Positions 23,609 to 28,319 of a stretch of 64,000 bases of DNA are shown here, in pieces (within the stretch, counting starts at the first letter, position 1; every line of letters begins with the position of its first letter). The stretch comes from an uncultured Nitrososphaerota archaeon (lineage in GTDB: Archaea; Thermoproteota; EX4484-205; JAAOZO01). The translations under genes and the position numbers were made by a program. The notes beneath the pieces are model-generated. The model did not search any database, was not told where the DNA came from, and saw only the letters and a list, made by a program, of their open reading frames with translations. The stretch covers positions 219,841-283,840 of the forward strand of contig CAYOYV010000001.1 in NCBI GenBank assembly GCA_964408285.1. The letters are read 5' to 3'.

Positions 23609-24268
23609 ATGGTTGATATCCTCGATTTCTCAAATCCGCAATCGGTTCTTCTTAGGGAGACAATTCACAGGCTAGGGGGATCGCCCATCTCAAGCATCGT
23701 AGCCGACAGGTTGGGATCATTCGCCGAAATCCAATCGATGGGATTCAGCGACTGGTTCCCTGAATTATGTTTCTGCATATTGGTAGCGAATTCACCGGCG
23801 AGAAAGATTCTGAGGGCAATCGAGTCAATAGAACCAGAATGCCTCCTCAGATCGTCCGAGGAGGACTTGAGAAGGAGATTGAAGATGTCAGGTGTTAGAT
23901 TCCACAACAGGGCTTCATTCATAGTTGAGGCAAGGAAGTTCACAGACCTAAAGGATAGAGTTCTTCGCTATAGAAAATCCACGGATGCCAGGGAATGGTT
24001 GGCGGGCAACATAAGAGGTCTTGGATACAAGGAAGCAAGTCATTTTCTACGGAATGTTGGCTTTCTAGACCTGGCAATTCTGGACAGGCACGTTGTCCAT
24101 GTTCTAATATCTACGATCTCTGTTCCTGGCGCAGGGATGCCAAAATCAAGGAACCAATATCTTGAGATGGAGGAGCTCTATCTGAGATTCTCGGGATTCG
24201 TGGGTCTCAGGCCCGGCGAATTGGATCTCTACCTATGGTATCTGAGCACCGGCGATATAGTGAAATGA
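23609..24268 (+). CDS. ogg: 8-oxoguanine DNA glycosylase/AP lyase (Ogg2)
   Basis: ELCFCIL, GLGYKEASHFLRNVG, ILDRH, DLYLW, C-terminal Lys. Confidence 0.93.
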   Translation: MVDILDFSNPQSVLLRETIHRLGGSPISSIVADRLGSFAEIQSMGFSDWFPELCFCILVANSPARKILRAIESIEPECLLRSSEEDLRRRLKMSGVRFHNRASFIVEARKFTDLKDRVLRYRKSTDAREWLAGNIRGLGYKEASHFLRNVGFLDLAILDRHVVHVLISTISVPGAGMPKSRNQYLEMEELYLRFSGFVGLRPGELDLYLWYLSTGDIVK

Positions 24269-24269
24269 C

Positions 24270-24752
24270 TCAGCTGCCCACTGCAGTCAGAATGACTTCC
24301 CTTTCCCTCGGTCCATTCATCTCGATGAAGAACACTCCTTGCCAACTTCCGACGAGAAGTGTTCCTTCCTCTATAGGCAGTGTTACGCTATTGCCTAGAA
24401 TCGCTGAACTCAGATAGGCCGAGAGAACCTGCGTGTCTCCTTTGTACTCCTGCAGAAGACCGGCCATTCTGTCTCCTTTCGTGTATTCACTGAATATATT
24501 GCCTATGGTCTGAGTAACACCTTCTCTCCTATTCGAAAGTACAAGCGCGCTAGTGGTATGTCTATTGTAGCATGATATCAGCCCATTCCTAATGCCTGAC
24601 GCCTTCAGGAATTCCCTTACATGATCCGAGACATCTATCACCTCTTTCTGCTTTTCGGTGTTTATCAGCAGCCTTTTCCTGAACACCCTGAGGCCGGGAG
24701 CTGAAGTAATCGTGAAATCGTATGATCCCTTTGTCTCACCCTCGCTTCCCAT
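24270..24752 (-). CDS. YjbQ/UPF0047 family protein
   Basis: HTTSAL, GSWQGVFFIEMNGPRER. Confidence 0.85.
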   Translation of the reverse strand: MGSEGETKGSYDFTITSAPGLRVFRKRLLINTEKQKEVIDVSDHVREFLKASGIRNGLISCYNRHTTSALVLSNRREGVTQTIGNIFSEYTKGDRMAGLLQEYKGDTQVLSAYLSSAILGNSVTLPIEEGTLLVGSWQGVFFIEMNGPREREVILTAVGS

Positions 24753-24846
24753 TGTCCATCCTCAATGGTTGAAAGGCAACAAAGCATTTAAAAGGTTTGG
24801 GAATCGACGACCTTGGAAGCCATTCGGTTTTGGCGGTGAATCTCCG

Positions 24847-27800
24847 ATGAGAGCATTCTATGAAGGCGCTTGCCCTAACTGCAGCGGAACAATCTCCGCA
24901 GAGAGATTGGTCAAGGGGTATGCATGCGAGAGATGTCTGCCGAGCTTGCCATCAGGCTTGGAGGACCCTCGAAATTATGCGATGCCTCTGAGCCATGAGT
25001 ATGAGGCGATTCTGGTTGTCAAGAAAAAGCTAAGCGAGTTCCGGAATCGAGTCAGGTCGCTTACATCCCACGATCCTACTCCCATTCAAGAATGGGCAGC
25101 CTGCATGATATTTCGAAATCAGAGCATTGCTATCTCAATGCCGGATGGCATGGGTAAGACCACACTGGCTGCGTCGGTGTGCGCCATCGAAATTGGCACT
25201 GGAAAGAAATGCCTCTACATCACACATTCCGCTTCCGAGGCTGATAGGGTAGAGGGAATTATCAAGACATTGGTGGCCCATTCGATTGCTGCGGATCTGA
25301 GAGCGCGAGAGCCAGAGATGCCCGTCAAATTAGTCGTTGCTTGTTCAGAAGAAGTGATTTCCGCAGGACCGGATTCAAGTAGACTTGAGGCCGGACTGGT
25401 GATCTTCGACAACATAGCGCAAGACGAAACTAGGCGAATTGGCGCATTGCTGCAACTTGATACGACTACATCGCTCTTCCTCTCGGAGGTGCCTGGGAAG
25501 TGGAATCGGATGTCGAAGATGTTTCCGAATGTCGACCATGTTCTCTCAAGGAAGATCCAAGGCCTTTCTGCCTATAACGTCTATGAGATAGAAAGCCCTA
25601 AGCTATCCTCAGCCCAACTGGCCAATCTCTGTTCAACGATAAGCGGTCAAAGGATTGCGATTGTCGATGGGACGCCAGCGTCCTCATTGTCACTGCCATC
25701 GAATTCAGCGGCCTACGAATCAGGGCTCGCTCTGGAATGTGATGCCAAATCAGGAGTCAGACAACAAAGCCGTCTTGGGGCTCTTAGGGGAATTGATATC
25801 CTCATCTTCAACGATCTGCCGGAGACACGCATTGAACTGAAAGAGGATTCGCTGACGCAGGAAAATCTCGCTTCCTTGGAAAGTATCCTACGATGGCTTA
25901 ACGGAATCGAGGGAGAGATATTATCATCCTTTCTCAAGAAGCCCAACAAGAGAAAGACCCTCAAATGGCTTACTGAGGAGCTAAAATCCGCCAGCGGAGG
26001 GAAACGCAAGTGGGCTAGTGGCGTGTGTCATTTTGAACTCGTCACGGATGGAATAGGGATCAGAAGCATTGATGTGGCAAGCTATGCCAAATGGTTGTCG
26101 CTTTCGGTGCAGGTGAGAGAAAGTATGGTGAAATGGCCAACGGTTCTCCTGATATCCGAGAGGGACAAACTCAGGGCTCTAGAGGCCATCTTGAGAGAGA
26201 TCCACGATCCTCACATCACTAGCGGAGCATTGGAGTCTTTGGCTGAGCACGCGAGGCAAGGGGTCATCGGCAGTTCTCTTAACCCTCATGTCGAGGTCGA
26301 TCTGTTGATCGTGGAATCACCCACAAAGGCTAGGACTGTAGCACAGATCTTCGGTAGAATAGGAGCAAGCAAGAAAGGAGAATTGCCAACCTATTGGACG
26401 CAAATCGGTCGTATATTACTGCGGTGCGTGGCAACTGGCGGTCATATCTATGACCTGGTCCTAGAAGGTGGATTCCATGGCGTGAGAACGGATGGGAATC
26501 GATTCGCTCCTGCCTATGGCTTCATTGAGAAATGCCCCAAATGCGGGAAACAAGTCGTGTCAGTTATGGTCTGCGGTCGTTGCGGATCCCAAGAGCTTAG
26601 GAGCAAGGAAGGTCTCATGAGGGGGATCCGGAGCCTCTCGGCCTCTGCCAAGTCCGTTTTTGTGGCGACCGATCCTGACGCCGAGGGTGAGAAGATAGCC
26701 ATAGATATCTCTGCTTATGTTTCTCCGTTCGCAAACGACGTAAAGCGAGTCACATTCCATGAATTAACGAAAAGGGCCATCGTGGAATCCCTGCAGTCCC
26801 CAAGGGAGATCTCCATGCCACTCGTCGAAGCTCAAATGGTAAGACGGATAGAGGACAGGTGGATTGGGTTTGAATTAAGCAAGAGACTCTGGGAGAATTT
26901 CTCAAGCAGACATCTCTCCGCTGGTAGGGCGCAGACCCCGGTGCTCGGATGGGTAGTAGACAGGGTAAGGGAAAGCAAGGAAAAAAAGATCTACCTCATC
27001 GCACAGTTAGATTCAGGAATTGCAGCATGGGTCGATGTAACCGGGAGAGACGATATCAAAGAATTGAAGAAGATGATGCGGTCAGCCGTGGCGGAGATTG
27101 AGGTAATTCGGGAAGAAACTAGGGAGATCAAGCCCTTTCCACCGTACACGACAGACTCTCTCTTAAGGGACTCTTTCTCTTTCCTGCATATAAACCCCAA
27201 TTATGCTATGAGACTCGCTCAGGATTTGTTCGAAATGGGCCTCATTACCTATCACAGGACGGACTCAACAAGGACTTCTTCCTATGGCATAGAGGTTGCC
27301 AAAACCTACCTAGACCAGAAATTCCCAGGGCAGTTCAGGCCGAGAACATGGCAGAAAGAAGGAGCACATGAAGCGATAAGGGCGACTAGATCATTGGATC
27401 TTGGCTCATTGTTGAATAAGTTCCGTTCTGGGGAATTGAAACTGAGCAAGCAATTTACAGGGTATCATCAGAGGCTGTATGAGATGATCTTCAGGAGATT
27501 CATTTCTTCACAGATGAGAGCCGCTACCGTAGTCTATCAGCATTTCAGGATTACGCTTAATGATTTTGTTATAGAAAAAGAGCGGAGGGTAGAGGTCAAG
27601 GAGCCTGGTTTCACGATGATGGTTCCACTCAAAATCGAACAGAGAATCAATCCAGGACATGAACCAGTCAAGTCAGTATCCAAGAGAACGATGCCGAAGG
27701 TTTGGCTTTTCACGGTGGGCGATATTGTTACAGCAATGAAACAGAAAGAAATAGGAAGGCCAAGTACATACGCGAAGATAATAGACACAATACTCACGCG

Positions 27801-28017
27801 CAGATATGCTTTTGAAGTAAATGGGAGGATAATATCCACCAAGCTGGGCAACGACGTGAGCGATTACTTGAGATCGAGATATGGCAAGTATATTTCCGAG
27901 GAAGCAACCCGCAAACTTGAGAGAACCATGAAGAGAATTGAGGACGGTCAAGAGGAATGTCAGGAGGTTCTGTCGGAGCTATACAGGGAGGTAATCTCCT
28001 TGCCCCCAGCCAAGTAG
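24847..28017 (+). CDS. rgy: Reverse gyrase homolog: intact topoisomerase IA domain, degenerate helicase domain
   Basis: N-terminal CPNC..I..ERL..G..C..C Zn finger; IVESPTKA, TDPDAEGE, RRIEDRWIGF, SAGR, GLITYHRTDS, EGAHE, GRPSTY; ATG 24847 (1056 aa). Confidence 0.9.
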   Translation: MRAFYEGACPNCSGTISAERLVKGYACERCLPSLPSGLEDPRNYAMPLSHEYEAILVVKKKLSEFRNRVRSLTSHDPTPIQEWAACMIFRNQSIAISMPDGMGKTTLAASVCAIEIGTGKKCLYITHSASEADRVEGIIKTLVAHSIAADLRAREPEMPVKLVVACSEEVISAGPDSSRLEAGLVIFDNIAQDETRRIGALLQLDTTTSLFLSEVPGKWNRMSKMFPNVDHVLSRKIQGLSAYNVYEIESPKLSSAQLANLCSTISGQRIAIVDGTPASSLSLPSNSAAYESGLALECDAKSGVRQQSRLGALRGIDILIFNDLPETRIELKEDSLTQENLASLESILRWLNGIEGEILSSFLKKPNKRKTLKWLTEELKSASGGKRKWASGVCHFELVTDGIGIRSIDVASYAKWLSLSVQVRESMVKWPTVLLISERDKLRALEAILREIHDPHITSGALESLAEHARQGVIGSSLNPHVEVDLLIVESPTKARTVAQIFGRIGASKKGELPTYWTQIGRILLRCVATGGHIYDLVLEGGFHGVRTDGNRFAPAYGFIEKCPKCGKQVVSVMVCGRCGSQELRSKEGLMRGIRSLSASAKSVFVATDPDAEGEKIAIDISAYVSPFANDVKRVTFHELTKRAIVESLQSPREISMPLVEAQMVRRIEDRWIGFELSKRLWENFSSRHLSAGRAQTPVLGWVVDRVRESKEKKIYLIAQLDSGIAAWVDVTGRDDIKELKKMMRSAVAEIEVIREETREIKPFPPYTTDSLLRDSFSFLHINPNYAMRLAQDLFEMGLITYHRTDSTRTSSYGIEVAKTYLDQKFPGQFRPRTWQKEGAHEAIRATRSLDLGSLLNKFRSGELKLSKQFTGYHQRLYEMIFRRFISSQMRAATVVYQHFRITLNDFVIEKERRVEVKEPGFTMMVPLKIEQRINPGHEPVKSVSKRTMPKVWLFTVGDIVTAMKQKEIGRPSTYAKIIDTILTRRYAFEVNGRIISTKLGNDVSDYLRSRYGKYISEEATRKLERTMKRIEDGQEECQEVLSELYREVISLPPAK

Positions 28018-28028
28018 GAGCCAGCCTA

Positions 28029-28319
28029 TCATAACGCCATCCCGAATGCCTTCAGGAAGGATCTCGCCTTGTCATATTGCTCTAGGAATTCCAGACCTTT
28101 TTCCGTCAGCGTATAGAATCTCCGATCATCGTCACTTTCCTCCTGTATTAGTCCCTGCTGCAGTAGCTGGCTGAGCCTTGTTTCCAATCTATCCGTTGGG
28201 AGATTTGCTTTCTGCATGATTCGGGTCTTCCCTACGCGTTCTTCTTCTCTCACTGCCTCCAAGATGTCGGCCAATATTGACACACTCGAACGATATCTCT
28301 TCGAGGTCCTAAGGGTCAT
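28029..28319 (-). CDS. Winged-helix transcription regulator (archaeal type)
   Basis: RS...I.ADIL, KTRIMQKANL, YTLTEKG.EFL. Confidence 0.85.
   Translation of the reverse strand: MTLRTSKRYRSSVSILADILEAVREEERVGKTRIMQKANLPTDRLETRLSQLLQQGLIQEESDDDRRFYTLTEKGLEFLEQYDKARSFLKAFGMAL

Follow-up and report, generated by a model that had tools for sequence, protein, structure and literature searches.

Canonical reverse gyrases (structures 1GKU/1GL9 and 4DDT/7FSF) are single polypeptides that carry, in order, an N-terminal zinc finger (Zn1), a helicase-like module, a TOPRIM domain with a second zinc finger (Zn2) and a topoisomerase IA core with its catalytic tyrosine, and the split reverse gyrases of Nanoarchaeum equitans and Methanopyrus kandleri depart from this plan by keeping a working helicase half on another gene. 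According to the available portion of a review of the enzyme (PMC4117796), positive supercoiling needs ATP hydrolysis and relaxation is powered by torsional energy in the DNA itself, the roles of the P-loop Gly, Lys and Thr and of the first Asp of the DDVD motif are confirmed for T. maritima, and deletion of the latch gives nucleotide-free relaxation in the A. fulgidus enzyme with no such gain in that of T. maritima; a 'reverse gyrase-like' gene on a Thermus thermophilus plasmid is named in the same text. Across 376 reverse gyrases, both crenarchaeal paralogues among them, good conservation of the helicase and topoisomerase motifs is reported in the part of Catchpole and Forterre (PMC6878951) at hand, where the presence of rgy is also treated as a signal of very hot life, for ancestral organisms as well. 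Two papers on the loss or gain of rgy in Thaumarchaeota (PMC10640624 and PMC7554672) do not discuss degenerate forms in the portions available, and among openly licensed PMC papers and bioRxiv none was found that describes a naturally occurring reverse gyrase whose helicase motifs have degenerated. Here we describe a gene that appears to be of this kind, in a stretch of 64,000 nucleotides (the window) from an uncultured Nitrososphaerota archaeon (contig CAYOYV010000001.1, positions 219,841 to 283,840). It is an uninterrupted open reading frame (ORF) of 1056 codons with an ATG start, at 24847-28017 on the + strand of the window, and had been described in an initial annotation, made from the sequence alone, as a reverse gyrase with a dismantled helicase motor and a pristine topoisomerase half. 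By descent and architecture the product appears to be a reverse gyrase; we propose that it works like a stand-alone topoisomerase I/III.

The motifs of the helicase-like region, which belongs to helicase superfamily 2 (SF2), were placed with an alignment of 22 sequences, and a conserved column was defined as one with at least 90% agreement among 17 full-length canonical reverse gyrases from related genomes (the contig-truncated copies of genomes G005 and G006 lie outside this 17-sequence count). The motif names (I, Ia, II, III, V and VI, and the 'Q motif') are used in what we take to be their standard sense. The elements of this region, all on the + strand, are as follows.

25075..25089, +, Q-motif region PTPIQ, with Gln81 kept (Q81 invariant in 22 and 21 aligned sequences)
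25138..25161, +, motif I (Walker A) MPDGMGKT, residues 98-105, GxGKT intact (G101, G103 and K104 invariant)
25219..25230, +, remnant of motif Ia, ITHS against canonical (I/V)VPT (P to H and T to S, with loss of the L and Q that follow downstream)
25405..25419, +, remnant of motif II (Walker B), FDNIA, residues 187-191, against DDVD (Asp188 kept, second Asp replaced by Asn189)
25480..25491, +, LSEV, residues 212-215, which by position may correspond to motif III (SAT); a predicted strand (208-213) ends here
25786..25803, +, motif V, partly kept, RGIDIL, residues 314-319, against RG(I/L)DLP (R314, G315 and D317 retained, no Pro)
25822..26070, +, latch-bearing insert of the second RecA-like domain, shortened to 83 amino acids (aa; segment lengths taken from the alignment)
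26089..26112, +, remnant of motif VI, KWLSLSVQ, residues 415-422, against QASGRTSR(L) (both Arg lost; D409 and Y413 anchor the alignment)

The helicase region keeps 19 of its 58 conserved canonical columns and is about 40 aa short in the stretch from motif II to the second RecA-like domain. Every string quoted in the initial annotation is present in the ORF, and in the alignment with the 17 enzymes those for motifs I, II, V and VI fall in the columns named for them; its account of motif VI was borne out, as both Arg are lost at an anchored position. Motif I, which it had listed as eroded, proved to be sound: G101, G103, K104 and T105 are all kept, and the Thr ahead of the first Gly is replaced by Asp. 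For motif II (quoted as DNIA) the loss of the second acid stands, whereas the first is retained, and hhalign pairs FDNIAQD with DDVDS; for motif V the loss of Pro stands, whereas the RGxD residues are retained. The string SEV, offered as motif III, is present, but its equivalence is positional only, as neither the 22-sequence alignment nor hhalign gave alignment support for it. Two canonical loci of a sister genus (L023 and L041) read IDDIG at motif II, and a third species (L024) reads IDDID; the last Asp of DDVD is thus not universal even in motor-competent forms, because L023 and L041 lack it.

The missing motifs were not recovered by realignment with hhalign and phmmer; it is the recovery of motifs II and VI that the initial annotation had named as a possible refutation. 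Profiles of the degenerate and canonical helicase regions were matched by hhalign with 99.8% probability over residues 1-193 only (zinc finger to motif II), and past residue 193 the helicase part is undetectable by sequence. When residues 1-480 were compared by phmmer with 1.84 billion representative proteins, 79 matches were obtained, of which 77, all but the query's own entry and that of the sister genus, end by residue 149, and a word-index protein search with the same residues returned the query's own entry only. No Pfam helicase family scored above cut-off in the protein; PF00270 (DEAD) reached 14.2 of the 26 bits required and spanned only residues 78-130, and Helicase_C (PF00271) gave no match. 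A protein atlas search with residues 40-480 placed helicase and reverse-gyrase clusters at 0.93-0.90, a lead only, which adds nothing beyond the alignments. Judged by these motifs, the SF2 module of the protein has lost residues on which ATP hydrolysis and coupling to DNA depend.

The remainder of the protein was found to be well conserved in reverse gyrase form, as the initial annotation had held for both zinc fingers and for the topoisomerase IA motifs with their catalytic Tyr.

24847..28017, +, whole gene, reverse-gyrase-derived type IA topoisomerase of 1056 aa (TIGR01054 and PDB matches)
24871..24936, +, Zn1, N-terminal zinc finger, C9/C12/C27/C30 (zf_Rg, 41.7 bits; four Cys in invariant columns)
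26308..26322, +, start of TOPRIM, IVESP, residues 488-492, with Glu490 (V489, E490, S491 and P492 invariant)
26533..26583, +, Zn2, second zinc finger, CPKC...CGRC, residues 563-579, within TOPRIM (structure match and sequence)
26668..26691, +, TOPRIM acidic cluster TDPDAEGE, residues 608-615 (T608, D609, D611, E613, G614 and E615 invariant)
27238..27267, +, active-site segment GLITYHRTDS, residues 798-807, with catalytic Tyr802 (T801 to S807 invariant)

Conserved canonical columns are kept at 7 of 8 positions in the zinc finger and at 103 of 113 in the topoisomerase half, and E490, D609, D611, E613 and Y802 all lie in invariant columns. The zinc finger strings are CPNC/CERC (Zn1, residues 9-30) and CPKC/CGRC (Zn2), and the first was matched by Pfam PF17915 (zf_Rg) over residues 3-33 (cut-off 25.5 bits); TOPRIM (PF01751, residues 486-640) and the topoisomerase IA core (PF01131, residues 655-1042) both scored above their cut-offs. 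The PDB reverse gyrases 1gku, 4ddt and 7fse match residues 485-1052 (E about 1e-126), and the same structures match the N-terminal part weakly, around the P-loop. The scores for the two stand-alone topoisomerase profiles fell short (TIGR01057, 136.5 bits against 458; TIGR01056, 56.2 against 515.75), and the N-terminal reverse-gyrase module of about 485 aa shows that the architecture is not that of a stand-alone topoisomerase.

The NCBIfam rgy equivalog TIGR01054 gave 699.6 bits against a cut-off of 471.7, with profile positions 148-582 unmatched. Automatic annotation would therefore call the gene reverse gyrase, since the score exceeds the cut-off and the topoisomerase half alone contributes 634.5 bits; the warning in the initial annotation that the name rgy would mislead was justified, as the score is reached despite the lost motor motifs. 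A gene that scores as rgy by a curated profile can thus be without the motor needed for positive supercoiling.

Orthologues of 978 aa (976 aa as trimmed for alignments) were found in a sister genus of the same family (genomes G002 and G004), with 53-54% identity to the query in the topoisomerase part and 28-29% in the N-terminal part. In these the P-loop reads IPHGQGKT and motif II reads IDDAD or IDDAG, there is no motif Ia, III or VI, and the G and D of motif V are kept in one of the two species and the R in neither. The latch-bearing insert is 83 aa in the query, 17 aa in the sister genus and 105-122 aa in canonical enzymes. When contigs were scanned for related loci, a single-protein query found no relative, and an alignment query retrieved the two sister-genus loci and canonical enzymes. 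A metagenome scan gave a near-identical copy of the query gene (1 aa different), cut by a contig end, and five full-length sister-genus copies, which comprise copies like each genome's gene and a third lineage on two contigs; the frames of all the full-length metagenome copies are intact. In a tree of the topoisomerase domain (24 rows, without G005 and G006; a quick IQ-TREE maximum likelihood analysis with midpoint root and, as its sole support measure, the Shimodaira-Hasegawa-like approximate likelihood ratio test, SH-aLRT) the four degenerate sequences form one group (SH-aLRT 100), which nests among the canonical reverse gyrases of related genomes.

The ratio of non-synonymous to synonymous substitution rates (dN/dS, Nei-Gojobori) between the two sister-genus species was 0.18 in the helicase-like part and 0.043 in the topoisomerase part, compared with 0.078-0.133 and 0.067-0.119, respectively, in four canonical pairs (a fifth pair, L029/L031, was synonymously saturated in two of three regions, including the topoisomerase, and lies outside the domain comparison). 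The helicase to topoisomerase ratio of these values is therefore 4.2 in the degenerate pair against 0.66-1.45 in canonical pairs, and the topoisomerase part of the degenerate pair is more constrained than that of any canonical pair measured. From this pattern, which agrees with the per-domain comparison proposed in the initial annotation (helicase part relaxed yet selected, topoisomerase part tightly constrained), it follows that the N-terminal module is still useful, yet much less constrained. The degenerate state is old and selected and is not ongoing decay. A pseudogene was considered and rejected, on the intact frames in this genome, the two sister genomes and the five metagenome copies and on dN/dS well below 1.

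The genome of the query (G000; 1.82 Mb in 46 contigs, 93.7% complete, 49% G+C) was searched for other topoisomerases. No second rgy was found in it, and no reverse-gyrase-type helicase half was detected elsewhere among 11,224 six-frame ORFs with a canonical helicase-domain profile. The separate topA that the initial annotation had thought possible was likewise not found in the genome: PF01131 is matched in G000, G002 (91% complete) and G004 (57%) by this gene or its orthologue only, and a hidden Markov model from 8 stand-alone proteins, together with tblastn with each of them over the whole assembly, returned only this gene as significant (one other frame reached no better than E 0.031). Neither gyrase nor topoisomerase IB was found in the genome, and topoisomerase VI A is present. 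This gene is thus the sole type IA topoisomerase found in the genome. In the related genus g2, G001 and G003 have a canonical rgy together with a stand-alone topoisomerase IA of 701-702 aa, and in a survey of 41 genomes, which are related by descent and are not independent samples, a stand-alone topoisomerase IA was clear (frames of 556-838 aa) in 34 of the 38 outside the degenerate clade. The exceptions are G005 (fragments only) and G006, G026 and G036 (none); G006 has a truncated rgy only, and G026 and G036, which are complete or near-complete (99%), have no type IA enzyme at all, with no type IA domain by PF01131 or by the query protein. The takeover of the type IA role by the degenerate enzyme is probable, because no stand-alone topoisomerase IA was found in the three genomes of its clade, and, as the only type IA topoisomerase found, the gene would have a concrete reason for retention while its motor decayed.

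As a side observation, the N-terminal domain of topoisomerase VI A/Spo11 (PF04406) was matched in two frames of the genome, of 383 aa (64 bits) and 389 aa (36.6 bits), which suggests two paralogues of topoisomerase VI subunit A (G000:C14:19011-19205 on the + strand and G000:C3:115915-116115 on the - strand, by profile search).

As a proxy for growth temperature, the fraction of the residues I, V, Y, W, R, E and L (IVYWREL) was computed over ORFs of at least 150 aa in seven genomes, with bootstrap ranges.

G000 (whole genome, 1354 ORFs), degenerate reverse gyrase, IVYWREL 0.421
G002, degenerate reverse gyrase, IVYWREL 0.414
G004, degenerate reverse gyrase, IVYWREL 0.414
G003, canonical reverse gyrase, IVYWREL 0.430
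G001, canonical reverse gyrase, IVYWREL 0.438
G012, canonical reverse gyrase, another genus, IVYWREL 0.443
G008, no reverse gyrase found, IVYWREL 0.4435

Between the degenerate and the canonical group the bootstrap ranges are disjoint. With the regression Topt = 937F - 335, the degenerate clade would be placed at about 53-60 °C (G000 at about 59.5 °C) and the other four genomes at 68-81 °C. This suggests that the host is a moderate thermophile of about 53-60 °C and not a mesophile, and it accords with the adaptation to lower temperature proposed in the initial annotation, proteome composition being below that of relatives with canonical enzymes. Since a motor-less rgy occurs in genomes that look moderately thermophilic, calls of presence or absence should check the helicase motifs, and this gene should not be taken to indicate that its host lives in extreme heat.

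In the genus of G008 and G012 (loci L082-L101) reverse gyrase was found in 7 of 17 genomes (the copy of G018 truncated) and in none of the other 10; G008 is 94% complete. Aragorn predicted 12 tRNAs in the 1.82 Mb of the query genome, or 19 with introns allowed, with several odd anticodon calls; many of the tRNAs probably contain introns, are split or are absent from the bin. The mean tRNA G+C was 0.62 (19 tRNAs), and no 16S rRNA was found in the assembly.

The N-terminal part was modelled with AlphaFold2 (residues 1-485, alignment of 22 rows; mean predicted local distance difference test, pLDDT, 63.9). The first RecA-like domain was confident (block means mostly 63-89) and the second weak (28-76 from residue 240). 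Foldseek returned reverse gyrases at the top for this model (E 3e-15 to 1e-12), then their helicase domains, then DEAD-box helicases. The full-length model (pLDDT 78, predicted template modelling score, pTM, 0.69) gave template modelling (TM) scores of 0.58-0.66 to 7fsf, 4ddt, 8ofb and 1gku over 1084-1172 columns, with the best target-normalised TM (0.66) to the minimal-latch T. maritima variant 8ofb, and it also matches the stand-alone topoisomerase 6k8n (E 1.6e-33). The reverse gyrase layout is retained in the predicted fold.

Compared with canonical reverse gyrases, then, the order of Zn1, helicase-like module, TOPRIM with Zn2 and topoisomerase IA core with Tyr is shared, whereas the query has no motif Ia, III or VI and has lost the second Asp of motif II, the latch is short, and the protein is the sole type IA enzyme found. 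The short latch recalls the engineered latch-deletion variants (A. fulgidus; the T. maritima minimal latch, 8OFB); those were made in the laboratory and keep their ATPase motifs, whereas here a natural lineage has lost the ATPase motifs also. With stand-alone archaeal topoisomerase IA/III (S. solfataricus 6K8N) the protein shares the topoisomerase fold and, we propose, ATP-independent strand passage, but it differs in having the reverse gyrase zinc finger and a helicase-like module and in grouping by its topoisomerase domain with reverse gyrases. Like the split reverse gyrases it departs from the single canonical polypeptide; unlike in those, no separate helicase half was found here.

We favour, as fairly probable, a reading of the gene as a reverse gyrase descendant that is a relaxase independent of ATP hydrolysis, that has taken over the housekeeping type IA role and that uses its N-terminal module as a clamp. 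Its ancestor was a canonical reverse gyrase, from which motifs Ia, III and VI, the second acid of motif II and part of the latch were lost. Mg2+-dependent type IA strand passage would relax negative supercoils without ATP hydrolysis and without introducing positive supercoils; intermediates containing single strands would probably be unlinked by the same protein, and the housekeeping role of the stand-alone topoisomerase IA would probably have passed to it. At lower temperature positive supercoiling may have become dispensable, with the gene retained through the type IA role, and the N-terminal module (Zn1 and two RecA-like folds) may serve as a structural, DNA-binding clamp on the DNA and on the topoisomerase half, and may bind nucleotide. 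The scaffold role that the initial annotation gave to a dead domain would fit this in so far as the motor motifs are lost, but the domain is not simply dead, as nucleotide-binding residues are kept in both genera. More tentatively, and as something we would not call likely, the gene may represent a reversion to a plain type IA enzyme that replaces topoisomerase III/TopA, with a fossil helicase module that binds but does not burn nucleotide and acts as a gate; on that condition, reverse gyrase genes could outlive hyperthermophily by changing job, and rgy would be no safe thermometer for genomes or for reconstructed ancestors. In either case the lineage offers a natural experiment on how the topoisomerase half behaves once evolution removes motor and latch, and on which parts of the helicase module serve purposes other than ATP hydrolysis, and it points to one way in which a gene may be retained, namely by assuming the role of a stand-alone type IA topoisomerase.

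Several observations weigh against the ATP-independent relaxase. Q81, GxGKT and Asp188 are kept in both genera, so that some nucleotide-dependent behaviour may persist, R314, G315 and D317 are kept in this genome, and the sister genus keeps both Asp of motif II (IDDAD/IDDAG). The argument from the latch is not general, because the T. maritima enzyme gains no relaxation on latch deletion in the part of the review available (PMC4117796). The bins are incomplete (93.7, 91 and 57%), so the missing topA stands as 'not found in 3/3' and not as proven absence, and G006, with a canonical rgy fragment, likewise shows no stand-alone topoisomerase IA. The temperature proxy is crude, with the same value for G012, which has rgy, and G008, in which none was found. 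The structural models lean to the canonical architecture because their input alignments are dominated by canonical reverse gyrases, and the second RecA-like domain is of low confidence.

The residues kept in both genera make nucleotide binding without hydrolysis a live alternative, in which bound ATP or ADP would control the topoisomerase gate allosterically, by opening or repressing it. Q81, P99, G101, G103, K104, T105 and D188 are shared despite 27% identity in the region, PHGQGKT and IDDA[DG] occur in all sister-genus variants (two genome copies and five metagenome contigs), and in the available portion of the review the same residues contact phosphate and Mg2+ in T. maritima and reverse gyrase relaxes DNA with non-ATP nucleotides too (PMC4117796). 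We nevertheless regard such gating as unlikely, as Asp or His takes the place of the Thr that precedes the first P-loop Gly, the query has Val for the aromatic residue upstream of the Q motif, the motifs on the H2 side that close the cleft on the nucleotide are gone, and retention of the P-loop could be structural. A still ATP-driven reverse gyrase whose motor has diverged past recognition would account for the predicted architecture, for the retention in this genome of P-loop, Q motif and RGxD and for the score above the rgy equivalog cut-off. A working ATPase motor is unlikely, however, because the Arg of motif VI, motifs III and Ia and (in this genome) the second acid of motif II are lost, at columns invariant in the 17 canonical enzymes; with the gap after motif II, the shortened or deleted latch, a constraint relaxed 4-fold relative to the topoisomerase part where canonical pairs give 0.66-1.45-fold, and motifs otherwise well conserved across the 376 sequences in the available part of PMC6878951, we consider this very improbable.

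Reverse gyrase also protects DNA independently of supercoiling, and ATP-independent protection or strand annealing, chaperone-like, could be the main role of the protein, with topA missing only because the bins have a gap. Purifying selection acts on Zn1, Zn2 and the N-terminal module and the bins are incomplete, as this would require, but the catalytic Tyr, the TOPRIM acids, the 103 of 113 columns kept and the lowest dN/dS (0.043) argue for catalysis, and no stand-alone gene was found in any of the 3 genomes of the clade, compared with 3 of 38 elsewhere that have none (and one more that has fragments only); we hold it to be improbable. What we find hardest of all to credit is partnership with a separate helicase, such as topoisomerase III has with a RecQ-like or Hel-type enzyme, in joint unlinking or overwinding. 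The genome does encode other SF2 helicases (among them a 967-aa frame on contig 2, which the profile matches in its P-loop region), and reverse gyrases split over two genes do exist, in species listed in the review, but the absence of a reverse-gyrase-type helicase half among the 11,224 six-frame ORFs speaks against it, as does the lack of an adjoining helicase gene.

The reading frame and sequence of the gene were checked. The same frame is open back to a GTG at 24658, and in the alignment reverse gyrase homology starts only at the ATG, from which 8 residues lead up to the zinc finger's CPNC. The contigs of four other sediment-metagenome runs span the gene, with 36 of 38 pieces at least 99% alike, and differ from it by 6 substitutions, all in one run, and by no insertions or deletions (0). 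An assembly artefact is excluded as the source of the gene sequence, because the contigs of four other runs agree without indels. No RNA dataset is listed among the 12 runs that contain the gene, and the runs are labelled sediment or freshwater sediment metagenomes, a label that is silent on temperature. A scan for sigma-70 promoters and terminators gave fewer sites than shuffles, the model being inapplicable to archaea. The surroundings of the gene are as follows.

23609-24268, +, 8-oxoguanine glycosylase (Ogg-type), neighbour just upstream on the same strand
24270-24752, -, UPF0047 protein, neighbour on the divergent side
24787..24793, +, TTTAAAA, possible TATA-box-like element 54 nt 5' of the ATG (from reading of the sequence)
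24835..24839, +, GGTGA, candidate ribosome-binding site 7 nt 5' of the ATG (from reading of the sequence)
28029-28319, -, winged-helix protein (HTH_45), small neighbour just downstream on the convergent side

No helicase or topoisomerase partner adjoins the gene in this local neighbourhood, where it stands alone between divergent and convergent neighbours. At the sister-genus loci a small ORF, of unassigned family, lies past a different intervening gene (L004, 4357-4881 on the - strand; L005, 3-584 on the + strand).

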